The notes: generated from the sequence alone by a model not told the origin. A stretch of 64,000 nt of DNA from Clostridia bacterium (GCA_017456545.1 JAFTJE010000012.1:8829-72828); one strand, 5' to 3'; counted from the first letter of the stretch, positions 40,476-57,600 are shown. Program-made: numbers and translations.

Positions 40476-40847
40476 ATGGCTTTGGACAATTTAACAAAAG
40501 TTGGAACGTACAACGATAAGTTTAACAAAATTTTAAATATAAATATAAGTCAAAAAGATATTTTTGTTTCAGATGGACTAAAAACTCATTTGATTAAAAG
40601 AAATCATTTAGATTGTTTGAAATATATAAACAAACTCCAGGAAATCATAAAAAATCCCGATTATATTGGGGTGAATCCAAATGAATCGGGAGATTCAGTT
40701 GAACTTGTGAAAAAATATTCTGACAATGTTTTAATCGGAATTAAGGTAGATTTATCGTCAAATATTCTATATGTTTCCACAATGTATAATCTGCAAGAGC
40801 AAAAATTACAAAGAAGAATTCATAGTGGAAGACTTGTTAAATTTTAA
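40476..40847 (+). CDS. Small putative BECR-fold (PBECR-like) nuclease
   Basis: GLKTHLIKRNH, IIKNPDYIG, ELVKK, YVSTMY resemble PBECR-type domains as recalled; own promoter (TTGACT 40423, TATAAT 40445). Confidence 0.6.
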   Translation: MALDNLTKVGTYNDKFNKILNINISQKDIFVSDGLKTHLIKRNHLDCLKYINKLQEIIKNPDYIGVNPNESGDSVELVKKYSDNVLIGIKVDLSSNILYVSTMYNLQEQKLQRRIHSGRLVKF

Positions 40848-40875
40848 CCATTTTCCAAAAAGTACACAAATATGG

Positions 40876-40904
40876 TTGACAAATGTTTAAATGTGTGGTA
40901 TACT
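40876..40904 (+). promoter_or_regulatory. Consensus SigA promoter with extended -10
   Basis: TTGACA-17bp-TATACT with TG two bases upstream of the -10; no ORF follows. Confidence 0.8.
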
Positions 40905-40910
40905 ATACAT

Positions 40911-41050
40911 GCAGTAAGAGTATACTGAATAGTGAGTTTGAATGAGGTCGGAAATGGTTCCCGACACACTTCGAAAGAAGTACCTGAGATGATGGATACA
41001 CCGCCCATCCGTTTGAACTTAATAAAAAGCCCTCGTTAGGGCTTTTTATT
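40911..41050 (+). ncRNA. Structured small RNA (four-way junction), possibly the skipping-rope motif
   Basis: Closing stem 40935-40944/41010-41019, three internal hairpins (one with a GAAA tetraloop), own promoter and terminator; motif name from memory only. Confidence 0.7.
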
Positions 41051-41054: not shown

Positions 41055-41063
41055 GTCTAAAAG

Positions 41064-41765
41064 AATACCACGCGATAGTCGCGTGGTTCAATAGAGGTTA
41101 ACCGGTGAGAAAGGAATCCTCCGATATGATATAATGAAAGAGACCTGCCAGTCAAATTCAAAAAACATATCGGAGGATTTATCTATGAAAAAAGAGACCA
41201 TAGACACAAATAGTTTAGCACATACAAAATGGAATTGCAAGTATCACATAGTGTTTGCACCAAAATATAGACGAAAAGTATTTTACGAAGAAAAAAGGTT
41301 AGAAATAAGAGAAATACTACGAAAACTATGCCAATGGAAAGGTGTAGAAATAGTAGAAGGGGAAGTGTGCCCAGATCACATACATATGCTGGTAAGCATC
41401 CCGCCCAAAATGAGCGTTTCGGGATTCATGGGATAGTTTGAAAGGAAAAAGCTCATTGTTGATATTTCAAAAATGGGGGAACATGAAATTTGCATACAGA
41501 AATCGCGAATTTTGGTGTAAGGGATATTACGTAGATACCGTGGGTAAAAACACAAAGGCAATAAAGGAATATATAGCAGATCAAATAACGAAAGATAAGG
41601 AAAGCGACCAGTTAAGTATGTTCGACCCACGGGACCCATTTATGGGTAGTAAGTAGCATATGCATGGCTGGCAGGCCAATTCTTAACGCACTTGTGCGTA
41701 GCCAGTAATGTCTAGGGCTATGCCCGAAACTGAAATACCCCCCGTTTTACGGGGGGATATTTATT
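41064..41765 (+). mobile_element. IS200/IS605-family element (tnpA only)
   Basis: Subterminal hairpins ACCACGCGATAGTCGCGTGGT and CCCCCCGTTTTACGGGGGG around a Y1 transposase. Confidence 0.88.
41185..41656 (+). pseudogene. tnpA: IS200 Y1 (HUH) transposase, frameshifted
   Basis: YHIVFAPKYRR, DHIHML, FWCKGYYV; one extra G near 41436 breaks GFMGYLKGKSS into a TAG stop. Confidence 0.88.
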
Positions 41766-41836
41766 ATGCTATTTTTCAAGGCGATATTCAAAAGATATCA
41801 TTTCCCCAAAACGCCCTTTGGGGAGGACTTGAACTA
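41766..41836 (+). repeat. ~70-bp cassette leader repeat, copy 1
   Basis: ATTCAAAAGATATCATTTCCC..AAACG.CCTTTGGGGAGGACTTGAACTA; second copy at 43735-43805. Confidence 0.85.
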
Positions 41837-41940
41837 AAAAAGCGGTTTTGCAAGTGCTACTTGACAAAATCAAGTGATATATTCTTTATTTTTGCAAGGA
41901 TTTCTGTTATAATCAAATTAAGCAAAAGGAGGCGACTTTT

Positions 41941-42040
41941 ATGACAGTTGGTGAAAAAATACAAGCATATAGAAAGCGACTTGGATGTCGCAAGAAGAGC
42001 TCGGGCAAAAGTTGCTTGTAAGCCGACAGACAATTACTAT
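41941..42040 (+). pseudogene. Truncated, frameshifted XRE-HTH gene start
   Basis: AGGAGG RBS, then MTVGEKIQAYRKRLG and, after a 1-nt shift, SQEELGQKLLVSRQTI. Confidence 0.7.
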
Positions 42041-43147
42041 ATGACAATCGGTCAGAATATCAAACGACTTCGCAGAAATGCGGATATGACACAGGAAGAA
42101 CTCGCCGAAATGCTGTCGATATCCTCTCAGGCAGTCAGCCGTTGGGAAACAGATTCCGCTATGCCGGATATTTCGTTGTTACCCATGATTGCCAATATTT
42201 TTGATGTCACCACAGATTCTCTTCTAGGAGTGGATATATCAAACAAAGAAGCACACATCAAATCAATTATTGAAGAAGCTCGTGAAACAGGAAAAAGCGG
42301 ACGCATAAGCGAAGCTGCTGAAATCATTCGTAATGGAATTGCGAGATATCCAAACAGCTATGAATTGTTATCTGAGCTTCAAGAATATTTGTATATTTTA
42401 AGTAAGCATTCACCTGACAAAGAGAAAGCTGTAATACGGAAAGAGATTATTTCACTTGGCGAAAAAGTTATTGCCAACTGCATGGATAACCAAATAAGAA
42501 ACCGTGTTATGACTACTCTGTGTTACACTTATAATAAAGTCGGAGAAAAGGAAAAAGCTGAAAAAATCGCATTGTCTATGCCAAACATTTATGAATCGGG
42601 AAGTGTTTTGCGCACTCACATCGAAACGGGTGATCGTCAATATGAAGCAAAGCGAGACTTGATCGTTACATTAATATCGATGGCAGTTACAGAGTTATCC
42701 AAACTTAATACAAAATTGGATAACGGTGATTGGGCTTTGTCGGATGACGAACAAATTATCATTTATCAAAAAGCATTATCACTGATTGATGTGTTATGTG
42801 AAGATAATGATTATGGTGAGTATATATTGAATGTTTCTGACTTGTATAGAAATATTGCAGCGGTATTCAGCAGAAAAAACGATATTGCGAAATCATTGGA
42901 ATATCTTAAGAAAGCGGTAACAATTAATGTGTCGTTTGATAATTCCTATAAACCAACACAAGTACACACATCTCTTCTTCTTCGCAATGATATTTACGAC
43001 GACTTTTTCTGGACGGATACAAATAATGCCTCTTTGTCGCTTTTAATTGATATCAACAACAATGAAGATTTCAACGCTGTTAAAAAAGAAGCAGGTTTTG
43101 CCGATTTGTGCAACGAATTAAAAAAAGCAGCCGGAAACCGAAACTGA
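42041..43147 (+). CDS. XRE-HTH regulator with TPR-like helical C-terminus
   Basis: MTIGQNIKRLRR..TQEELAE..QAVSRWE..PDISLL. Confidence 0.85.
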   Translation: MTIGQNIKRLRRNADMTQEELAEMLSISSQAVSRWETDSAMPDISLLPMIANIFDVTTDSLLGVDISNKEAHIKSIIEEARETGKSGRISEAAEIIRNGIARYPNSYELLSELQEYLYILSKHSPDKEKAVIRKEIISLGEKVIANCMDNQIRNRVMTTLCYTYNKVGEKEKAEKIALSMPNIYESGSVLRTHIETGDRQYEAKRDLIVTLISMAVTELSKLNTKLDNGDWALSDDEQIIIYQKALSLIDVLCEDNDYGEYILNVSDLYRNIAAVFSRKNDIAKSLEYLKKAVTINVSFDNSYKPTQVHTSLLLRNDIYDDFFWTDTNNASLSLLIDINNNEDFNAVKKEAGFADLCNELKKAAGNRN

Positions 43148-43405
43148 TATCTTTTTTGGTCTGACTTGCCAAAAAGAAAAGTCGCGCGAGCGGCTTTTTC
43201 TTTTTGTACTTTTCACTATTCTCTTTTCACTCTTCACTTTTCTCTGACTCTCCCGCACGACTTTTCCAGAGAAGAGATAAGAGAGAAGAGAGAAAAGGTA
43301 GCCTTTCTCCCTTTGGTCGAAAAGCATTTTTATTATAAAATCGTGTGCATCTTTTTCGGCACCTCTACTCAAAAAGGAAACCGTCCAAAAGGACGGTTTT
43401 TCTTT

Positions 43406-43668
43406 TTGGTTGTGTGGCAAGCGTCGGCTTGCCACATTCGGTTATAAGTCCGACGAGCGTAGCTCGTTGGGGAAGCACACCGCGCGCATCCTGTGGATGA
43501 AACAGCGCGGCGTGCTTCCCGCAGCGGTCGGATTTTTACGCCGAAGCGACCAGCGTAGGCGAATAAAAATTCGGGTTACCGCAAGGCGGCACAGCGACAC
43601 AGTATAGGAAAACCCAATTAAATTTCGACAATTATATAATTAAATTCAAATCTCGTCTCCACAACCAA
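43406..43668. repeat. GC-rich multi-hairpin non-coding element (MITE-like)
   Basis: Terminal TTGGTTGTG/CACAACCAA inverted repeat enclosing four strong hairpins. Confidence 0.6.
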
Positions 43669-43734
43669 CAATGCGAACCGAAAAAGATATCGGTTCGGAA
43701 AACCCCGAAACCACATCGGTTTCGGGGTTTTGTT

Positions 43735-43805
43735 ATGCCATTTTTTAAGGTGGAATTCAAAAGATATCATTTCCCAAAAACGACCTTTGGGGAGGACTTG
43801 AACTA
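43735..43805 (+). repeat. ~70-bp cassette leader repeat, copy 2
   Basis: Matches 41766-41836. Confidence 0.85.
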
Positions 43806-43853
43806 CTTATCTTGATAAAAACGTAAAATTCTGTTACAATTTATAAAAAGGTA

Positions 43854-43884
43854 TTGACTTTTACCCAACGTAAAAAACTATAAT
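43854..43884 (+). promoter_or_regulatory. MerR-type promoter/operator
   Basis: TTGACT-19bp-TATAAT with dyad TTTTAC-N5-GTAAAA. Confidence 0.75.
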
Positions 43885-43908
43885 TTCGGTGTAAATGGAG
43901 GTGTTTCT

Positions 43909-45111
43909 ATGAAAATAAAGTCTGTATGCGAATTAACCGGTCTTACCGATCGCACGATTCGTTACTATATTGAAGAAAAACTGATATCTCCCTTGTACAC
44001 CGAGAATTATTTGGGTCGTAAAACCTATAACTTTTCCGAAAAAGACATTAAAGACTTAAACGATATTGCCGTTTTGCGAAAATTTGATTTCACTTTGGAG
44101 GAGATAAAATCGGTAATCAATGACGCGGAAGCAAGTAAAGAAATTCTTTCCAATGTAAAAGATAGAACGGCACAAACTGTTTTGGATGGTCAAAACAAAC
44201 TCTTTGTGTTATCACAGATCAGTACCGAAAAAACTTATACAGTCGCAGAGCTTGCTGAGGCGTTATCAAAGGTCTCTTTGGATATGCCTGAGCATAAGGA
44301 AACAATTAAAACCAATATTCTAAAAACGGCATTGTCTGTTTTAAAAACAATAATAATCTTTGCGGTTGTTTGGCTGCCGATAGCGTTAAGCATATTTGTA
44401 GTCACCATTAGTATCAATGATTATCATTATCCCGTTTTTGAACCTATAATGATTGGATTGACAATTACTTCTTTTCTACCGTCCATAACGGTATTGATTG
44501 TGTCAAAAACAAAACTGAAATGGAAAAAGATTGCGCAACGAATTTTGCTCGTTTTTTGTATTTTGAGCATCCCCGTTAGCTTTTTTATGTCATTTGGAAT
44601 TGTGTCAAAATCCCAAACAACAGATATTAGAAATTACCGTGACTTTGATGCTGATTGCCTTGCCAATAGAAATGTGGTGTTCCAAGAGTTGTTCCCAAAC
44701 TGGCCGAATTATTTTGAAAACGTGAAACAAGCAGACGGCAGTTATAAAACAGTTTATTTAGATTCACATTATTATTATCACTACCACCAAGGATTTGACT
44801 ACACCTACGATATATATGCCGAGTGGCCATTGAGTGAAGATGAATACGTCAAAGAGGTAAAACGAGCAACTGCTGTATTTACAAAAAACATTGAAAACAA
44901 AACGTACAATTATAAGTTTGCAGAAATTATAAAAGGTGACTATAATTGTCTGGTGCTGTACAACGGTGATGCGCCTTTCACCAAGGCGACCGATAATTAT
45001 GATTATATTATTTTTGCTTATAATGATGAAAATAACACCGTTCGGTACATCTACTGTGACAGTCTTGAAAACGGCGCCGATCAGCCGTATTATTTAGAAC
45101 TTGATTGGTGA
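43909..45111 (+). CDS. MerR-HTH regulator with TM helices and a C-terminal extracytoplasmic domain
   Basis: IKSVCELTGLTDRTIRYY..LISP; about 3 hydrophobic segments mid-protein. Confidence 0.82.
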   Translation: MKIKSVCELTGLTDRTIRYYIEEKLISPLYTENYLGRKTYNFSEKDIKDLNDIAVLRKFDFTLEEIKSVINDAEASKEILSNVKDRTAQTVLDGQNKLFVLSQISTEKTYTVAELAEALSKVSLDMPEHKETIKTNILKTALSVLKTIIIFAVVWLPIALSIFVVTISINDYHYPVFEPIMIGLTITSFLPSITVLIVSKTKLKWKKIAQRILLVFCILSIPVSFFMSFGIVSKSQTTDIRNYRDFDADCLANRNVVFQELFPNWPNYFENVKQADGSYKTVYLDSHYYYHYHQGFDYTYDIYAEWPLSEDEYVKEVKRATAVFTKNIENKTYNYKFAEIIKGDYNCLVLYNGDAPFTKATDNYDYIIFAYNDENNTVRYIYCDSLENGADQPYYLELDW

Positions 45112-45689
45112 TATCTTTTTCGGTGCAACGTGCCAATAAAAGAAAAACACATCCACACGGATGTGTTTTTCTTTTATTCGCTACGGAATGAGGCTTGAGC
45201 CATATGGTCAAGGGATTATGAGCCCGAGGGCGAATAACTTGTTTGCCAGTGAAAACGATTGAGTATCGTTTTCATGCCTGCAAATCGCCACAAAGCAAAG
45301 AGTTTTCCGAGCCGAGTGTAAACAAAGTGTCGAGGTGAGAGAAAACGACTATGCGACTGGTGCGGTGGTTATATTAAAACAACTGTGTGTTGTTTTCTTG
45401 CCAGCGTTTCTCCGTCGAACAAGGAGTATGCCAAGTTGAGTGTAAACGAAGTGTCGAAACGCGGCAGACGACTATGTGAACGGAGAGAAAGGTCATGTGG
45501 TTCAAATCCCTTCCCCACACCTAAAACAAACCTAAATTGAACCATCGGTTCGGTTTAGGTTTTTTCTTTTGTGTGGTGGAGTTTGAATCCTTTGCGACTC
45601 CGTGTTATACACGACGAGCGTGGCTTGATGGGAATTGAGAGAAAAAACGCTCAGTGAGTCGATTAGTGAGTCGATTAAGTTACAAGCAC

Positions 45690-45718: not shown

Positions 45719-45740
45719 TTTTAATTAGTGAGGTGTGTAT

Positions 45741-46718
45741 ATGATTGAGATTACTGATAAAAAATTAAATGGATATAAATTCATAGATTTGTTTGCTGGT
45801 ATGGGTGGATTTAGAATAGCATTGGAATCACTTGGTGCCGAATGTGTTTATTCAAATGAATGGGATGTTCCTGTGCAAAAAGTATATGCTGATAATTTTG
45901 GGGATGTTCCAGAAGGTGATATAACAAAAATTGATGAATATTCTATTCCTTATCACGATATTCTTTGTGCTGGGTTTCCTTGTCAGGCATTCTCGATTAG
46001 TGGAAAGCAACGAGGGTTTGAAGATAGTAGGGGCACATTGTTTTTTGATGTAGCTAGAATTGTTAGGGCTAAAAAGCCTAAAATTGTATTTATGGAAAAT
46101 GTTAAAAATTTTGCCACGCATGACAACGGTAGAACCTTACAAATTGTAAAAAATATAATGGAAGAATTAGGATATGTTTTTTACCAAAAAATATTGAATT
46201 CGGTAGACTACGGTATACCGCAAAAACGAGAAAGAATTTATATGGTTTGCTTTAGAAAAGATTTACAAATAAACGACTTTGTATATCCAAAAAAAATCAA
46301 GCTTATACGACATGTTGAGGATTATTTATTACGAGATGAAGATCAGGTTAAACATTTGTATGTCAACAGATCAGATACGCAATTTAATAAAACAAAGGAT
46401 GATACTTACAGCAATAAGACAATTAGACTTGGAATAGTAAATAAAGGTGGACAAGGAGAGCGTATTTATAGCACAAAGGGAATAGCTATAACTCTTTCTG
46501 CTTGTGGAGGGGGAGTATTTGCTAGAACAGGTGGATATCTAATTAACGGAAAAACTCGTCGTTTGCATCCTAGGGAATGTGCAAGAATTATGGGTTATCC
46601 GGATTCCTATAGGCTAGCAAAAAATGCAAATCAAGCATACAAGCAACTTGGTAATTCTGTTGTAATTGATGTTTTACAGTATATTGCTTGTCAAATTGCA
46701 AATGTGGTGGAACGATGA
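45741..46718 (+). CDS. C5-cytosine DNA methyltransferase, M.HhaI-like (predicted GCGC)
   Basis: FAGMGG, GFPCQ, ENV, QKRER; TRD GIVNKGGQGERIYS..IAITLSA.GGG closely resembles M.HhaI as recalled. Confidence 0.92.
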   Translation: MIEITDKKLNGYKFIDLFAGMGGFRIALESLGAECVYSNEWDVPVQKVYADNFGDVPEGDITKIDEYSIPYHDILCAGFPCQAFSISGKQRGFEDSRGTLFFDVARIVRAKKPKIVFMENVKNFATHDNGRTLQIVKNIMEELGYVFYQKILNSVDYGIPQKRERIYMVCFRKDLQINDFVYPKKIKLIRHVEDYLLRDEDQVKHLYVNRSDTQFNKTKDDTYSNKTIRLGIVNKGGQGERIYSTKGIAITLSACGGGVFARTGGYLINGKTRRLHPRECARIMGYPDSYRLAKNANQAYKQLGNSVVIDVLQYIACQIANVVER

Positions 46719-47011
46719 ACGAAATAGATTTTAAGGCTTGGTTACGATCACAAAATACAATAAAAAAAGTTCAAGGCGATTTAATTTCAAGAATTAAACG
46801 CCTTGAACGTGTATTCGGTAATATTGACTTAGACGAAGAATATCAAAAAGATAAGTGCTGTTTTTTACTCTCTCTATTTAAAAACAAAGGAGTAAATTCC
46901 GAAATGAACAAATTTGAAATAGCGGAACTTCCAATAGGTCAATATCAATTAAGCACTTATAAGTATGCTTTGAAAAAGTACATATCATTTATCGAGTCAG
47001 AATGTCTATAA
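46715..47011 (+). CDS. Small hypothetical protein coupled to the methyltransferase
   Basis: ATGA overlap with the MTase stop codon. Confidence 0.65.
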   Translation: MNEIDFKAWLRSQNTIKKVQGDLISRIKRLERVFGNIDLDEEYQKDKCCFLLSLFKNKGVNSEMNKFEIAELPIGQYQLSTYKYALKKYISFIESECL

Positions 47012-47783
47012 ATCCAACATTTGAAATTGAATCTATTTGTGGTTCAAACTCCACAGAAAATATAACATTAGCATTAAGCGTATTTGAAAGTTTTCTAATT
47101 TCATATACGTTTTCTCTTTTTGAAAACATATATTCTGTTCCATCTAATTTAAACCTTATATTGTGAAGTTCGCTATTAGAAATAGCCATCATTCTATCGC
47201 CTTTTACACCAATGGCAATAATAGGATAATTGTTTTCAATATAATTTTTCATCTTTGCAACATTATTTTTTCCAACATATCCCGAACCACTTCTTTTAAC
47301 CCTATATGTAGCAGATATATTAAAAACATTTTCAATGTCTTCTATTGAAAAAATTTCAAAGTTATTCGTAATAATATATTTCGTTTCTTTTCTTTTGTAA
47401 TAATTTTTTATCCATGCTGCAAAAACATCAGTACCATTTTCCATTTCTATAAGTTTTCCCCTAGTTCCTGCATTTTTAAATGATTCAAAATCTTGATTCA
47501 TATATTCAATTATTGCGTGGGAGTATGGATTGATTGGTGTTGCGTTCAAATGACTATAATCAAACATTTCTATCCCTATATTAGGTAATAAAACAAACTG
47601 TCCACATTGAGCAGGGCAATGCTTCGCTTCAATGTAAAAAGATTTTCCACTATTAGTCACCACTTCAATGTCGGATTTTGTGGAATCGCTTTTTCCTTTC
47701 CAAGTAAAATGTGCATATTGACCGAAATGTCTTTCTAAATAGTCAACACAAGACTTTTCAAAATCTTCCCAAACTTTAGCCAT
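46989..47783 (-). CDS. Type II restriction endonuclease, R.HhaI-like
   Basis: SDSTKSDI..FYIEAK..QCGQFVL, YRVKRSGS, LSNTLNANVIFS resemble R.HhaI as recalled. Confidence 0.78.
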   Translation of the reverse strand: MAKVWEDFEKSCVDYLERHFGQYAHFTWKGKSDSTKSDIEVVTNSGKSFYIEAKHCPAQCGQFVLLPNIGIEMFDYSHLNATPINPYSHAIIEYMNQDFESFKNAGTRGKLIEMENGTDVFAAWIKNYYKRKETKYIITNNFEIFSIEDIENVFNISATYRVKRSGSGYVGKNNVAKMKNYIENNYPIIAIGVKGDRMMAISNSELHNIRFKLDGTEYMFSKRENVYEIRKLSNTLNANVIFSVEFEPQIDSISNVGFIDILTR

Positions 47784-48759
47784 TGTTATTGCCTCCTTGC
47801 TTTTTTATAAATTCAAGTATTGATGTACCTATTGCCTTAATTACATTTACAGTCATTGCATTTCCTGCTTGCATAAGCAAGTGCCTATCTTTAACAAAAT
47901 TTTTAACCCTCATAGCATATTCTTTTGGAAAACCTTGTAACAGCAAAGCTTCAAATCCGGTTAGTTGAAAAATAGTATTATTTTTAACATATAGAATACC
48001 ATCTCTTTGTGCTCGTAAAGTTGGGCATTTGCCGTCATATATTCTCAAATCGCTCATTCGAGTGTCTATGATTTTCCCTTCCATTTGAGTGATATCTGCA
48101 ACAGAATATTTGCCGTTGTTAGTTGGGTTATTCAAATAATAATGCAATATTTCGAGCCTTTCTGGAGTAGCTAAATTGTCATCAATTAAAAAATCCATTA
48201 AATTCGGTTTTATGATTTTTGGCGGCCATTCAAACTTAGAAAAATCAAAGTTCAAATCAGTTCTAAAACCAACAAAATAAACCCTTTGACGCATTTGTGG
48301 GACACCATAATCTAGGCTTGTCAAAACTCTGTACGATGTTGTATATCCACAATTTGTCAGTTCGTTTATAATCGTTTTGATTGTTTTCCCATTATCATGA
48401 GTTACCAATCCTTTTACATTTTCCAAGATAAAAACTTTTGGTGATTTCTCTTTTATAATTCTTGATAGATGGAATATGATTTGTCCCCTATCATCAGAGA
48501 AACCCTCTTGTCTACCGATAACAGAAAAAGTTTGGCAAGGGAATCCTGCAATCAAAACATCAAAATCAGGTAAATTTTCTTTTCCCAATTTTTTCAAATT
48601 TCCAAAATTTTTGTCCTCAGTTTGATGCATTAGTATATATGTTCTGTCGGCTAAACGACTCGTGTCGGAATGTCCTACACATCTTAGTCCACATTGTTCT
48701 AACCCTAGCCTTCCACCACCGATTCCTGAACAAAAATCAAAGAATGTATTAATCATCAT
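47776..48759 (-). CDS. Second C5-cytosine DNA methyltransferase (H. pylori GCGC-MTase-like)
   Basis: DFCSGIGGGRLGLEQC, GFPCQ, ENVKGL, DTRMSDLR..PTLR, QAGNAM. Confidence 0.88.
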   Translation of the reverse strand: MMINTFFDFCSGIGGGRLGLEQCGLRCVGHSDTSRLADRTYILMHQTEDKNFGNLKKLGKENLPDFDVLIAGFPCQTFSVIGRQEGFSDDRGQIIFHLSRIIKEKSPKVFILENVKGLVTHDNGKTIKTIINELTNCGYTTSYRVLTSLDYGVPQMRQRVYFVGFRTDLNFDFSKFEWPPKIIKPNLMDFLIDDNLATPERLEILHYYLNNPTNNGKYSVADITQMEGKIIDTRMSDLRIYDGKCPTLRAQRDGILYVKNNTIFQLTGFEALLLQGFPKEYAMRVKNFVKDRHLLMQAGNAMTVNVIKAIGTSILEFIKKQGGNNNG

Positions 48760-55517: not shown

Positions 55518-55756
55518 GGCGTTTGATGAAGAGAGTATTACAGGTCACTTATTCAAAGAGAGCCACGGTAGGTGAAAGCGTGGTAATAAGCCCTGCAAGA
55601 AAAACACTTCGTAGCCTGCGAAAGAAAGCCTTTTTGGTTAGTAGAATCGCACGCCCATCCCGTAAGGATGTTTAAGTGGACCGTTATCGGTCAATTTGGG
55701 TGGTACCGCGGAAGATAGCCTTTCGTCCCATATCGGGGGACGAAGGGCTTTTTGTT
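55518..55756 (+). promoter_or_regulatory. T-box riboswitch, probable Asn (AAC) specifier
   Basis: AGTA, AGAGAG and GGTGAAA stem-I motifs, GAA-A-AAC-A-CTTC specifier loop, GGGTGGTACCGCG T-box, terminator 55717-55756. Confidence 0.88.
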
Positions 55757-55824
55757 TTTCACAGATACAGCCTTCCCACATTACACAGGTTAAAAATATT
55801 TACTATAAATCGGAGGATAAAACC

Positions 55825-57600
55825 ATGTTAAGAACACATAATTGTAATGAGCTCGGACTTGCTCATATCGGTCAGAGTGTAACTCTTACCGGTTGGATTG
55901 AAACCGTCCGTGACCACGGTGGAGTGCTTTTTGTAGACCTTCGTGACCACTACGGCGTAACACAGATCGTATTTTCCGACGACTCTATGATAGCGGGTAT
56001 GTCAAAGGAAACCGTTGTTAAGGTTGACGGAACAGTAACAAAGCGTGATGAGGACACAGTAAACCCCAAGATTGCAACAGGACTTATTGAGGTTCGTGCA
56101 GAGAGCATAGAGGTTCTCGGCCCCTGTCAGCTCGGTCTCCCCTTTGAAATTGACGCATCCACACAGACAAGAGAGGATGTACGCCTTAAGTACCGTTATC
56201 TCGACCTTCGTAACCGTAAGATTCACGATAATATCGTGCTCCGTTCTAAAATCTTGAGCTATCTCCGCCGTCAGATGGAGGACTTGGGCTTTATGGAGAT
56301 ACAGACTCCTATTCTTACAGCCTCCTCACCCGAGGGTGCAAGAGACTATCTCGTGCCCAGCCGTAAGCATAAGGGTAAATTCTATGCACTTCCTCAGGCT
56401 CCCCAGCAGTTCAAGCAGCTGCTTATGGCATCAGGCTTTGACCGTTATTTCCAGATTGCTCCCTGCTTCCGTGATGAGGATGCCCGTCAGGACCGTTCTC
56501 CCGGAGAGTTCTATCAGCTTGACTTTGAGATGTCCTTTGCAACGCAGGAGGATGTATTCGAGGTTGCTGAGACAGTAGTTTACAACACCTTTAAGGAGTT
56601 CTCCAAAAAGGAGGTTTCCAAGCCCCCCTTCCGTAGAATTACCTTTGCAGACGCAATGATGAAGTACGGCTCCGATAAGCCTGACCTTCGCAATCCCCTC
56701 ATTATTCAGGACCTTACAGACTTCTTCGGTAAGCACGAGTTCCTTACAATCAACGGAAGAACAGTACCCTTCAAGAACAAGCTTGTCCGTGGTATTGTAG
56801 CCAACTATCTTGTTAAGAAGGATGGTGACGGAGACGGTAAGAAGGCATTTGAAAAGGCTATTGACGCTTATTCAAGAAGCATAGGTATGAAGTTCGGTAT
56901 CGGCTACATCACACTCGAGGGTGGAGAATACAAGGGTCCTATTGCCAAGTTCCTTACAGAGGAGCAGAAGGCAGAGCTTACAGCTCTTGTAGGTATTAAG
57001 GAGGGCGAGTCCCTGTTCTTCATCAGTGACTCTGCTTCCGTTATCAATAAGCTCTCCGGTGAGATGAGAACATGGATAGGCAATGAGCTCGGTCTTATCA
57101 AGAACGACTCCTTTGAGTTCTGCTTCATTGTTGATTTCCCCATGTATGAGCTTAATCCCGAAACAAATAAGATTGACTTTACACATAACCCCTTCTCAAT
57201 GCCCCAGGGAGGTATGGATGCACTTCTTAATAAGGATCCTCTTGATATTTTTGCATACCAGTATGATATTGTATGTAACGGTGTAGAGCTTTCCTCCGGT
57301 GCTGTTCGTAACCATAATCCCGATATTATGAGAAAGGCATTTGAGATTGCAGGCTACGGTGAGGATACACTCAAGGCTAAGTTCGGTGCCCTTTACACAG
57401 CCTTTGCATACGGTGCTCCTCCTCATGCAGGTATGGCTCCCGGCGTTGACAGAATGATTATGCTTATCGCCGAGGAGGAAACAATCCGTGATGTTATCGC
57501 ATTCCCCTTGAACGGTAACGCACAGGATCTTATGATGGGTGCCCCCGGTGAGGTAACAGAGCAGCAGCTCCGTGAGGTACACATTAAGGTAAGAGACTGA
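55825..57600 (+). CDS. aspS: Aspartyl-tRNA synthetase, probably non-discriminating
   Basis: RTH, RDHGG, EGARDY, PQQFKQ, CFRDED, GAPPHAG; GGAGG RBS before ATG 55825. Confidence 0.95.
   Translation: MLRTHNCNELGLAHIGQSVTLTGWIETVRDHGGVLFVDLRDHYGVTQIVFSDDSMIAGMSKETVVKVDGTVTKRDEDTVNPKIATGLIEVRAESIEVLGPCQLGLPFEIDASTQTREDVRLKYRYLDLRNRKIHDNIVLRSKILSYLRRQMEDLGFMEIQTPILTASSPEGARDYLVPSRKHKGKFYALPQAPQQFKQLLMASGFDRYFQIAPCFRDEDARQDRSPGEFYQLDFEMSFATQEDVFEVAETVVYNTFKEFSKKEVSKPPFRRITFADAMMKYGSDKPDLRNPLIIQDLTDFFGKHEFLTINGRTVPFKNKLVRGIVANYLVKKDGDGDGKKAFEKAIDAYSRSIGMKFGIGYITLEGGEYKGPIAKFLTEEQKAELTALVGIKEGESLFFISDSASVINKLSGEMRTWIGNELGLIKNDSFEFCFIVDFPMYELNPETNKIDFTHNPFSMPQGGMDALLNKDPLDIFAYQYDIVCNGVELSSGAVRNHNPDIMRKAFEIAGYGEDTLKAKFGALYTAFAYGAPPHAGMAPGVDRMIMLIAEEETIRDVIAFPLNGNAQDLMMGAPGEVTEQQLREVHIKVRD

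Follow-up and report, generated by a model that had tools for sequence, protein, structure and literature searches.

Probable recombinase-less gene cassettes in a Clostridia genome and their insertion at tRNA CCA ends

Two unrelated regulator genes stand one behind the other in a 64,000-nt stretch of DNA from a Clostridia bacterium (the window), and both are framed by the same ends. The question raised by this locus is whether the two framed units are mobile gene cassettes and, if so, where they land and which enzyme could move them. The original prediction, made from the sequence alone, had read them as a cassette array served in trans. Our analysis supported this reading, since the same motifs are widespread and flank varied genes in many relatives. 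The two units are probably recombinase-less integrative gene cassettes, and their family is frequent among gut Oscillospiraceae and Clostridia related to them. All features of the window described below lie on the plus strand.

Layout of the array in the window

The array begins behind an IS200-type insertion sequence (41063..41765), whose ends were derived from the loose ends of many contigs. Its tnpA gene is frameshifted (41134-41436 and 41438-41656), and both ORF pieces match the Pfam family Y1_Tnp (HUH/Y1). It had been predicted that the window contains no recombinase gene. This held for serine and tyrosine recombinases, and must be limited to them because the transposase gene (41134-41656) lies directly 5' of the first leader. 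Elements of the IS200/IS605 type carry subterminal hairpins in the same orientation, have no inverted repeats and insert beside a short target word. Units derived from IS200/IS605 and served by the adjacent TnpA were rejected, since the unit ends are inverted repeats and the IS200 (703 nt) is an independent insertion that has ends of its own. Copies of its right end with other flanks were found on three contigs of the same genome (C1, C8 and C10). The IS200 removed the outer left arm of unit 1.

The inner part of this left arm, the leader (41766..41836), is still present. It carries AAAAGATATCA at 41790-41800 and a small hairpin (CCCCAAA/TTTGGGG), its 3' end reads GGACTTGAACTA, and sequence comparison showed that it is kept at 86-89% in other genera. 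The predicted sharing of the leader by both units was confirmed as a 77-nt direct repeat with 90% identity (41760-41836 and 43729-43805, D1). AAAAGATATCA occurs four times in the window against 0.09 copies expected, a number reached in none of 100 shuffles. Genome-wide (1,907,742 bases, both strands) there are five copies, four of them at this locus, with about 2.8 expected from base composition.

The leader is followed by the head of a different, widespread XRE cassette (41837..42040), which consists of a promoter-like region and a frameshifted N-terminus (MTVGEKIQ...). That cassette family matches 41837-42043 only, at 13 loci with 75-89% identity, and the frame is broken after 41941-42018. 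Within it, a candidate promoter sequence, TGTTATAAT, was found by eye at 41902-41910. The start of the XRE gene proper is most likely 42041, and 41941-42040 is most likely a frameshifted remnant of another cassette's gene. Cargo gene 1 (42041..43147) encodes an HTH_3 (XRE) regulator of 368 aa with weak TPR matches, and its TGA stop lies inside right site R1 (43146..43171, GATATCTTTTTTGGTCTGACTTGCCA; CCA at 43169-43171). Unit 1 is a chimera of two cassettes.

A cargo-less module (43172..43371) lies behind R1, composed of a terminator (43176-43199), a long imperfect hairpin (about 43205-43313) and a degenerate right site, R3. The last is the third right-end variant that had been noticed; it reads ATCTTTTTCGGCACCTCTACTCA at 43349-43371 and ends in CTCA. 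The stretch 43171-43375 is 94.8% identical to the DNA directly 3' of tRNA-Met at a related locus (L096). The next segment (43372..43667, with inverted repeat I7) comprises a further terminator (43376-43401) and about 265 nt of a GC-rich, non-coding element. This element closes like a tRNA 3' end (TTCAAATCTCGTCTCCACAACCA, 43645-43667), and an Rfam search with it gave no match.

Unit 2 has a complete left arm (43668..43805; repeats I16, D1 and D4), made up of the spacer ACAATG, hairpin U (43674-43697, loop AAAAAGATAT), the terminator hairpin T2 (43699-43731) and the leader, in which AAAAGATATCA occupies 43759-43769. A promoter scan placed a promoter-like site at 43812-43840. Cargo gene 2 (43909..45111, 400 aa) encodes a MerR-type HTH protein with hydrophobic stretches after the HTH, and no family was assigned to its C-terminal part. 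Its TGA stop lies inside right site R2 (45110..45135, GATATCTTTTTCGGTGCAACGTGCCA; CCA at 45133-45135).

Several further details of the original prediction could be verified at these ends. The open frames 41948..43147 and 43909..45111 both end within TGATATCTTTT, with TGA at 43145-43147 and 45109-45111. The right ends form a 36-nt repeat (D5, 78% identity) of the pattern GATATC-T5/6-YGG-N9-CCA, followed by a hairpin and a T run. The perfect inverted repeat is also present, and measures 15 nt (43677-43691 versus 45110-45124, I9). The near-equal lengths of the units were reproduced (41790-43155, 1366 nt; 43759-45119, 1361 nt) but are a coincidence, as the other units span 711-3604 nt.

The DNA behind R2 (45136..45562) is a native tRNA-Met downstream flank, with a terminator hairpin (45132-45181), a GC-rich element and a terminator (45528-45562). 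This GC-rich element consists of two 124-nt units followed by a copy of the tRNA-Met 3' part at about 45488-45516 (repeats D2, I1 and I8). Contig C8 of the same genome carries the same flank 3' of an intact tRNA-Met, with 96% and 80-99% identity. The cargo-less module and the two GC-rich elements with tRNA-like ends thus stand between and behind the two units. The array in the window is a worn copy, and no tRNA gene adjoins it in the assembly.

Cassettes and insertion sites in relatives

Among 200 other genomes of the family, 17 have the leader, which is also present at 58 of 79 loci from the genome collection, and the right site occurs in at least 122 metagenome stretches. Dozens of other genomes, and metagenome contigs numbering more than 100, carry the arms with other genes between them. 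The left arm measures about 170 nt, and the leader forms its inner portion. The arm opens with a hairpin bearing the loop AAAAAGATAT and continues with a terminator hairpin and the conserved leader containing a second AAAAGATATC; each long arm has two copies of the GATATC motif. In the alignment of the left-arm hairpins, 5 of 22 pairs kept their pairing through two-sided changes. The arm is followed by a promoter-like region, mostly one gene, and the right site, a conserved 26-mer (GATATCTTTTTCGGTGCNACNNGCCA) whose CCA is in register with the CCA of the tRNA.

The right site repeats the left arm's opening 23 nt in inverted orientation, so a circular cassette would carry a palindromic site of about 50 bp centred on CCAA. 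Upstream of many right sites there is no left arm of the hairpin type, and other left arms exist, for example behind tRNA-Tyr; the palindromic joined site is therefore not general. Nor is the stop codon inside the site a general trait: in two sets of 21 and 63 right ends it was seen in 4 and 2, respectively.

The units occur singly or as short arrays, and the function of the cargo varies greatly from locus to locus. Among 23 units at 22 loci (711-3604 nt), 19 hold a single ORF of at least 70 aa, 18 of which read away from the tRNA, and at 18 of 21 right ends an open frame has its stop no more than 60 nt from the right site. The Pfam families of the cargo include GH10, GH32, rhamnosidase, ion channel, methyltransferase, phosphorylase, GNAT, phosphatase and HTH; eight of the 23 proteins have no Pfam family. 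A Pfam scan of the cargo ORFs from 21 of these 23 units found no recombinase domain. The two units of the window hold only the XRE and MerR genes, within the same two kinds of arm.

Some cassettes could be followed from genome to genome. The MerR unit (43778-45136, 1359 nt) is 96.5% identical in a water-deer gut MAG (L123), where it is flanked by the right site of another gene and the left arm of the next cassette, with neighbours different from those in the window. The likeness breaks off exactly at CCA (45136). Similarly, a cassette for a 266-aa methyltransferase is shared by an Acutalibacteraceae MAG and a Faecousia MAG. The two proteins differ by three residues (counted by eye), and the flanks after CCA are unlike.

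Alignment showed that in Oscillospiraceae-type gut genomes the left arm begins directly 3' of the CCA of tRNA-Met. At 17 related loci, ARAGORN called tRNA-Met(CAT) in eight, tRNA-Gln(CTG) in four and no tRNA in five. The genome collection gave 58 left arms. Thirty of them stand behind an intact-looking tRNA-Met end and 10 form tandem junctions (six behind a canonical right site, four behind an R3-type right site); 13 are behind other or pseudo-tRNA ends, in four no hairpin U was found and one is at a contig start. The empty site, both junctions and the cassette-cassette junction have only CCA(A) in common. These sequence comparisons show that insertion takes place exactly at the CCA end of the tRNA-Met gene, with variants at tRNA-Gln or tRNA-Tyr. 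Contig C8 provides the corresponding empty site in the same genome, where tRNA-Met-CCA is followed by the flank that stands behind R2-CCA in the window.

Joins without the units were also seen in read contigs, which are short and were assembled from mixed communities. In run X3, one contig joined a tRNA-Met 3' end (...CCCCCGCAA) to the R1 flank at 43169. R3 was joined directly to hairpin U (43369 to 43666, the GC-rich piece being absent) in contigs of four runs from three studies, and in contigs of X4 and X8 the match ends at 45135 and 45136. Summed contig depths in those runs were 27-1600 for the arms (mostly hundreds) versus 0.65-44 for the cargo genes. The joins may reflect the arrays of other organisms and not excision in this strain.

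Candidate enzymes and alternative explanations

The enzyme is presumably supplied in trans, and the candidate is the large serine recombinase of big mobile elements with the same arms. At four loci (L093, L140, L154 and L157) the genes behind this left arm encode DNA methylases, DUF1281, YodL/DUF3846 and an adhesin, and the contig of L140 (G411:C12) continues with TrbL, a TraG-like ATPase and a sortase. Proteins with large-serine-recombinase domains were found upstream of the right site at 4 of 14 long metagenome loci (L258, L295, L305 and L306), at a distance of 0.1-4.5 kb, and at 10-18 kb in G411:C7. At L258 a ParB_N-Recombinase protein lies 124 nt from the right site. No single contig with a tRNA, left arm, recombinase gene and right site was seen: G411:C7 has no tRNA within 54 kb upstream of the right site, the 4-16 kb retrieved around the closest orthologues of the recombinase beside the right site (57-72% identity; G160, G115, G202, G126 and G267) contain no right site, and at L127 a serine recombinase lies behind the leader with no right site after it. 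In the same genome as the window, no serine or tyrosine recombinase gene was found on the window's contig (C10), and the only serine recombinase lies beside an unrelated split gene. Taken together, the gene contexts are suggestive, and make the large serine recombinase of the same-armed elements the most likely candidate for an enzyme acting in trans. A simple serine-recombinase site needs no paired motif copies. The two GATATC copies per long arm could equally be arm-type sites for a tyrosine integrase, or transposase-binding sites.

A tyrosine recombinase, whether an integrase encoded by the large elements or an Xer-type enzyme of the host like the one used by IMEX elements and dif modules, would use AAAAGATATC as arm-type or accessory sites. 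The two motif copies at unequal distances from the crossover agree with this, as do the tRNA 3' ends, which are classic targets of tyrosine integrases, and the 28-nt copy of the tRNA-Met 3' part that flanks the GC-rich elements next to the units, a footprint that these integrases usually leave. The genome has two Phage_integrase (PF00589) genes, only on C12 and C43 and none on C10. We consider this explanation quite unlikely: the sites share only CCA(A), 3-4 nt, while tyrosine recombinases normally need an identical overlap of 6-8 nt, no such enzyme was among the scanned proteins beside the arms, and by eye the arms appear unlike the Firmicute dif site. A reading of the units as non-autonomous transposons, of the mobile-insertion-cassette or MITE-like type, is also very unlikely; a DDE transposase would bring them into the tRNA end, and CCA would be a 3-bp target duplication. 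Inverted repeats of about 23 nt at both ends with CCA on either side would suit them, and the subterminal motif copy of each long arm recalls the multiple transposase-binding sites that Tn7- and IS21-type ends carry. Against this, the scanned proteins included no DDE transposase adjoining any arm, many units have left arms without an inverted copy, and all observed insertions are at a tRNA-type CCA or the right end of another unit, an uncommon pattern for elements of this sort. A mobile insertion cassette or MITE of an IS family was also rejected, since despite the inverted ends the scanned proteins revealed no transposase-carrying element with such ends, and the neighbouring IS200 has other ends.

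The units could also be decay products of large conjugative elements at tRNA-Met, in which internal deletions left the ends and a nearby gene (CIMEs in the strict sense); they would then not live as cassettes, and nothing would select for units of a single gene. Both arms are common to the large elements, unit 1 is chimeric with an empty module beside it, and L121 is a clear remnant, comprising the leader, a putative DUF4314-like ORF, a truncated methylase, a DUF3990/HTH pair (named through Pfam on near-identical G411 proteins) and a right site. Still, this origin is unlikely for the family, because random deletions would not yield the single-ORF, tight-ended and recurring units described above: 19 of 23 have one ORF, 18 of these in the same direction, frames stop close to 18 of 21 right ends, and the same cassettes stand beside other neighbours in other genomes. 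L121 aside, the scanned cargo ORFs match none of the named families of the large elements. Least credible is the absence of any mobility, with the framework of promoter and terminator duplicated locally in tandem, or the segment inverted through the 15-nt repeat (43677/45110). The leader is found only twice in this genome and the MerR unit is bracketed by that perfect repeat, but the arms with other genes between them in so many genomes and metagenomes contradict it. The repeat is accounted for as right site versus left-arm hairpin, and no strand-changing joint was present among 15 of 24 contig joints.

Relation to known systems and meaning

The cassettes are integron-like in arrangement but made of different parts. 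Like integron cassettes they are small, mostly single-gene units of unrelated functions and mostly one orientation, with an imperfect-palindrome boundary site, some stops inside the site, and arrays possible without a nearby integrase. The likeness to integrons that had been predicted thus holds for layout and not for membership, there being no IntI and no attC. An attC site has imperfect inverted repeats with a GTTRRRY-type core and recombines at one end. By comparison with this consensus, attC at the cassette ends was rejected, since the sites here are GATATC-T5-CGGTGC...CCA plus an inverted partner and break at the CCA in the middle of the joined site. The crossover lies mid-palindrome, half a site remains at each unit end, and a tRNA gene end with its CCA target serves as platform. 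Integron cassettes are promoterless and read from a common promoter; each unit here opens with a terminator hairpin and has a predicted promoter-like sequence of its own, which may set it apart. Among large-serine-recombinase elements (SCC-like or ssrA-island-like), autonomous members encode such an enzyme, with Resolvase, Recombinase and zinc-ribbon parts, and the partner sites have very little identity (the central dinucleotide) and inverted half-sites of about 20-25 bp. The units here share this site pattern, with partner sites identical only in CCA(A) and inverted half-sites of about 23 nt, a likeness that excludes units with other left arms.

The CIMEs of the ICESt1/ICESt3 family (PMC5704250) keep attL and attR, lack integration and transfer genes and stand in tandem with relatives at one target gene end; mobilisation by a related element's recombinase has been proposed. 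They are described there as decayed ICEs/IMEs with tyrosine integrases and long att identity. The units here likewise keep both arms, hold no integration or transfer genes and can stand in tandem, but are mostly single-gene, with tight uniform ends, very diverse cargo and a core of only CCA(A). L121 is a remnant of the decayed kind, and most units show no trace of large-element genes.

The ssrA-specific islands of Dehalococcoides (PMC3146451) are also tandem; some carry a CcrB-like serine recombinase module (DsiB) that includes a ParB-domain protein, and 15 lack it and are thought to ride along. Staphylococcal SCC and pseudo-SCC composite islands are described in the same paper. The resemblance lies in the tandem arrangement behind the end of one small RNA or essential gene, and the ParB_N-Recombinase protein of L258 may be compared with DsiB. 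Those islands are multi-gene, insert in the tmRNA T-loop and leave a 20-bp direct repeat (PMC3146451), whereas the present units, of about 0.7-3.6 kb, insert after or within CCA with a 3-4-nt repeat, and their link to a serine recombinase is suggestive. The tycheposons of Prochlorococcus (bioRxiv 10.1101/2020.12.28.424599) are variable islands seeded by tRNA genes including one tRNA-Met, stacked with partial tRNA copies between them. They have their own integrase (a tyrosine recombinase in 910 of 937) and leave partial tRNA repeats, and cargo-carrying forms exist. The present units are likewise tRNA-seeded, stacked and cargo-carrying, but lack an enzyme and leave only CCA. Our literature search found no description of the present cassettes.

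In the reading we favour, a recombinase-less cassette would land exactly at the CCA end of tRNA-Met, or of tRNA-Gln or tRNA-Tyr in variants, and new cassettes could land at the same place, so that arrays form. A broader proposal is tentative: gut Clostridia may run an integron-like gene-capture platform at tRNA CCA ends, with cassettes moved by the serine recombinase of a co-resident conjugative element. Insertion and excision there would involve cassettes of a single gene, each bringing a terminator and a promoter of its own. The right arm (...GCAAC...CCA) of every cassette would imitate the tRNA acceptor end, so that each insertion would recreate the target and arrays could grow and reshuffle. 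If true, gut communities of animals and humans would share a second cassette system that evolved independently.

Ends of the cassettes

The observation of two cassettes with shared ends, an XRE/HTH_3 cassette (unit 1, 41766-43171) and a MerR cassette (unit 2, left arm from 43668, right site to 45135), was confirmed. The leader stands twice in the locus, as a direct repeat of 77 nt (41760-41836 and 43729-43805, 90% identity), and 43677-43691 is a perfect 15-nt inverted copy of 45110-45124. Both right ends continue as described, with a T-rich stretch, YGG, nine bases, CCA and then a hairpin with a T run. The third right-end variant is a degenerate copy at 43349-43371 (R3). The 11-mer AAAAGATATCA occurs four times in the window against 0.09 expected (none of 100 shuffles reached four) and five times across the whole 1.9 Mb genome, four of these at the array locus. 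The TGA of TGATATCTTTT closes both open reading frames, at 43145 and 45109. The noted overlap of stop codon and site is therefore real in the window but no rule, since the TGA of TGATATC is the stop at only 4 of 21 right ends in the genome set and 2 of 63 in the metagenome set. The XRE gene is present as predicted, but its start is most likely at 42041, and 41941-42040 is the frameshifted head of another gene.

The original prediction proposed comparing the leader with relatives. It has only two copies in its own genome and was found in 17 of 200 other family genomes, at 86-89% identity in other genera; it was found in none of three same-genus genomes. Alignment of related loci showed that the conserved block exceeds the leader and starts directly after the CCA of tRNA-Met(CAT), and a diverged version starts after tRNA-Gln(CTG). 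ARAGORN found tRNA-Met in eight of 17 loci, tRNA-Gln in four and no tRNA in five. The block, or left arm, begins with a six-base spacer and a hairpin with loop AAAAAGATAT (43674-43697), which includes the further CCGAAAAAGATATC noticed earlier. A terminator hairpin (43699-43731) and the leader follow, the latter with a second AAAAGATATC inside and GGACTTGAACTA at its end. In an alignment of 20 arms, pairing was kept through two-sided changes at 5 of the 22 predicted pairs of both hairpins. The terminator would keep transcription of the tRNA operon from running on into the unit.

A species-genome collection was scanned with 19 leader bases, which gave at least 121 stretches, and 79 loci were read. 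Among the matches listed, 58 of the 79 held the true block, and nearly all of these were gut MAGs labelled Oscillospiraceae, Acutalibacteraceae, Faecousia, Eubacteriales or Clostridia. The remaining 21 were chance matches, most in unrelated taxa or records labelled only Clostridia/Eubacteriales. Directly before these 58 left arms, again among the matches listed, stood an intact-looking tRNA-Met end (30), a canonical right site (6) or an R3-type site (4), and the rest lay behind other or pseudo-tRNA ends. Rfam returned no family for leader, arms or the GC-rich elements described below, at gathering score or at E up to 5, and blastn of the left arm against phage and plasmid collections returned no match.

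The right site was found 0.7-3.6 kb behind the leader in 22 loci among the matches listed, and its sequence, GATATCTTTTTCGGTGC-N-AC-NN-GCCA, varies little across them. It repeats the first 23 nt of the left arm in inverted orientation (GATATCTTTTTCGGTGCAACTTG versus the reverse complement of CAAGTAGCACCGAAAAAGATATC), and its CCA is in register with the CCA of the tRNA. Unit-to-unit junctions run in the order right site, CCA, spacer, hairpin. When metagenome contigs were scanned with the 26-mer right site, at least 122 stretches were obtained, some titled human gut. Longer right arms carry a second motif copy 113-125 nt upstream. Other left arms, without the inverted copy, also exist, some right sites lying ~1.1 kb behind tRNA-Tyr(GTA) or tRNA-Met. 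Four metagenome loci (L233, L266, L283 and L289) have the right site ~1.1 kb behind tRNA-Tyr(GTA); their left arm, a terminator plus several GTGATATT-type repeats, makes a second arm family. Two viral contigs with the right-site 17-mer were chance matches, both inside GC-rich genes. A family-wide count of the pattern with one mismatch was too noisy (286 of 401 genomes matched, mostly within genes), and exact matches alone were followed.

Cargo and breaks at the CCA

Among the matches listed, 23 units were counted in the 22 loci. A single ORF of at least 70 aa is present in 19 of the 23, directed away from the tRNA in 18 of the 19. An open frame ends no more than 60 nt from the right site in 18 of 21 cases of the genome set and 20 of 63 of the metagenome set, again among the matches listed; the lower metagenome share is because many of the right ends there have the long right arm. 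Pfam assigned cargo enzymes to GH10, GH32, alpha-rhamnosidase, LCM-type methyltransferase, nucleoside phosphorylase, GNAT and histidine phosphatase, and other cargo to ion channel, EamA, AraC and several HTH_3 proteins; no Pfam family was found for 8 of the 23 proteins. The two cargo proteins of the window are one of HTH_3 type, with weak TPR matches, and one of MerR type, hydrophobic in its middle. A scan placed a promoter-like site in unit 2 at 43812-43840, and promoter-like TGTTATAAT was seen by eye in unit 1 at 41902-41910. Such sequences would give each unit a promoter of its own.

A copy of the MerR unit in a water-deer gut MAG contig (L123) matches 43778-45136 (1359 nt) at 96.5% identity. 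That copy lies behind the right site of another gene, and the left arm of the next unit follows right after its CCA. The likeness stops at 45136. Contig C8 of the own genome carries tRNA-Leu and tRNA-Met, and after the CCA come the terminator and GC-rich element that in the window stand behind the CCA of R2 (the right site of unit 2, 45110-45135), at 96% and 80-99% identity. Because the flank of this tRNA-Met is the flank behind the CCA of R2, R2 looks like a right junction made of element arm, CCA and native tRNA flank. The stretch 43171-43375, made up of terminator, long hairpin and degenerate site, is 94.8% identical to DNA directly behind tRNA-Met in a related locus, L096, and is thus a module without cargo. 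Judged by its sequence, unit 1 is a chimera; its first 207 nt alone match a widespread XRE cassette (13 loci).

The array locus was compared with contigs assembled from four public gut runs (three studies); uncovered window parts and runs with a small word share were left out as evidence. Summed contig depth in these runs was 27-1600 for the arms (mostly hundreds) versus 0.65-44 for the cargo genes. On one contig a tRNA-Met end runs into the flank of R1 (the right site of unit 1, 43146-43171) at 43169, and another has a full tRNA-Met ahead of the hairpin. In all four runs, contigs fuse the degenerate site straight to the hairpin without 43370-43665. Matches to the MerR unit in two further studies end at 45135 and 45136. 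These short contigs, assembled from mixed communities, showed that the modules occur in other contexts, and are no demonstration of excision in the own strain. Ten genome-collection loci among the matches listed end within 170 nt behind the leader, as expected where one community holds different units at one place. Same-genus synteny gave no empty site: relatives are 72-76% identical in the flanking genes and the downstream DNA could not be aligned. The recurrence of units with varied cargo and the breaks at CCA support the original reading of cassettes served in trans.

Neighbourhood of the array

No tRNA gene adjoins the array of the window. The array's left-hand neighbours are a Fur-family gene, genes for rubrerythrin and for a PBECR3 nuclease-domain protein (the latter at 40476-40847), a skipping-rope RNA and an IS200 element with a frameshifted tnpA (41063-41765), so that the array start, 41766, is the first base after the IS. 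The IS200 has at least two identical copies, one of which ends contig C1, so this MAG may be wrongly joined across the IS. Right-end copies of 112-128 nt lie elsewhere in the own genome (C1 end, C8:15540-15667 and, on the window's own contig, C10:40551-40678). If the join is false, the array may actually belong behind the tRNA-Met of contig C8, as its continuation, by analogy with a related locus, L253, whose order is tRNA-Met, terminator, GC-rich element, left arm, cargo and right site.

GC-rich non-coding elements of ~200-340 nt lie at 43402-43667 and 45182-45520 of the window and at C8:37336-37542. They stand behind the terminator after CCA and finish either like a tRNA or with a duplicate of the tRNA-Met 3' part; elements of the same kind occur in L013 and L253. 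They may be miniature integrated elements of the tyrosine-integrase type, or a small RNA gene. ARAGORN ruled out 45180-45520 as tmRNA, and the tmRNA of the genome is on C33. Behind the tRNA-Met of a metagenome contig (L292:742-1000), a long hairpin of CTTTTCAC-type repeats precedes a small gene, which we take by eye to encode a four-helix-bundle protein (23S rRNA intervening-sequence type). Window 43205-43313 keeps such a long hairpin, with the gene missing.

A strong promoter-like site (TTGACA-17-TATACT, 40876-40904) follows the PBECR3 gene, and then the skipping-rope RNA (RF02924, 40937-41017, 66 bits), the only real Rfam match near the array, and a terminator. TTTTTATTTTTTGTCT stands on both sides of this block (~40283 before, ~41043 after), and 40476-41050 looks as if it were an insertion. 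Just behind the array, two C-5 cytosine DNA methylase genes (45735-46718, plus strand; 47776-48759, minus strand) enclose ORFs of 107 and 264 aa without family, and 45735-48759 is probably a restriction-modification unit. Methylases were also seen behind the leader in large relatives. Farther on, a T-box leader (RF00230, 55513-55733, 113.7 bits) before an aspartyl-tRNA synthetase-type gene (55696-57600) is ordinary.

Candidate enzymes and meaning

Only CCA(A) is common to the empty site, the left and right junctions and the unit-to-unit junctions. Partner att sites of large serine recombinases (Bxb1, phiC31, Ccr-type) share only a very short core between inverted half-sites; 6-8 identical bases are the usual requirement of tyrosine recombinases. 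By analogy, the very short core and ~23-bp inverted half-sites fit the att sites of large serine recombinases. Circles of units with hairpin arms would carry a ~50-bp palindrome centred on CCAA. The two motif copies per arm and the left arms without inverted copy do not correspond to the needs of a minimal serine-recombinase site. The prediction that the window lacks a recombinase held in that no serine or tyrosine recombinase gene is on the contig, but it missed the frameshifted IS200 transposase gene (Y1_Tnp, 41134-41656). Since the contig has no serine or tyrosine recombinase gene, the enzyme would act in trans.

Resolvase, Recombinase and zinc-ribbon proteins were found upstream of the right arm in 4 of the 14 long metagenome loci scanned, and in one of the four a ParB_N-Recombinase protein lies 124 nt from the right site. 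On contig C7 of another genome, G411, the interval 10-18 kb upstream of a right arm includes a cluster of recombinases and one recombinase of 630 aa. Four related loci (L093, L140, L154 and L157) have the left arm and then DNA methylases, DUF1281, YodL/DUF3846 and an adhesin; farther along the contig of L140 (G411:C12) are TrbL, a TraG-like ATPase and a sortase. No contig examined combined a tRNA, a left arm, a recombinase and a right site, the 54 kb upstream on G411:C7 contained no tRNA, and no right site was found in the 4-16 kb around five close orthologues of the recombinase adjacent to the right site. The link of the arms to large serine recombinases is suggestive only.

C12 and C7 of G411 were considered as one element, and no overlap was seen. 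A recombinase behind the leader in L127 and the sole serine recombinase of the own genome are not linked to the arms, a fragment of an unrelated split gene adjoining each. The fragment is, by eye, presumably an end of the CotJC/manganese-catalase type. The own recombinase (519 aa, C12:1-1700) lies at a contig end overlapping C11 (C11:46412-46533), followed by the tail of a gene seemingly split by the element, the same pairing as in L127.

The layout recalls integrons as first suggested, but the defining integron parts are absent. The closest described systems are cis-mobilizable elements (CIMEs) with tandem accretion (PMC5704250), the Dehalococcoides ssrA islands, 16 with a CcrB-like serine recombinase module and 15 without (PMC3146451), and tycheposons (bioRxiv 10.1101/2020.12.28.424599). 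The units here differ from all three in being single-gene-sized, in having uniform ends, in inserting at the three final bases of the tRNA gene and in their structured left arm. Word searches of the open-access literature returned no description of a CCA-end cassette system, which may be described elsewhere. We class the units with integrative elements that lack a recombinase and stand in tandem at a tRNA gene.

A CCA-end system would explain the frequent assembly breaks just behind tRNA-Met in such genomes. The 26-nt right arm and the CCA are short, well-defined sites, which makes the question testable at the bench, and the system could be used as a landing pad in organisms where engineering is difficult. 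If the units move as inferred, they would give gut Clostridia a simple and very common way of exchanging single accessory genes, such as glycoside hydrolases, transporters, regulators and modifying enzymes, without a phage- or plasmid-sized vehicle. The cassettes reach through gut communities and occur here in a major gut family.
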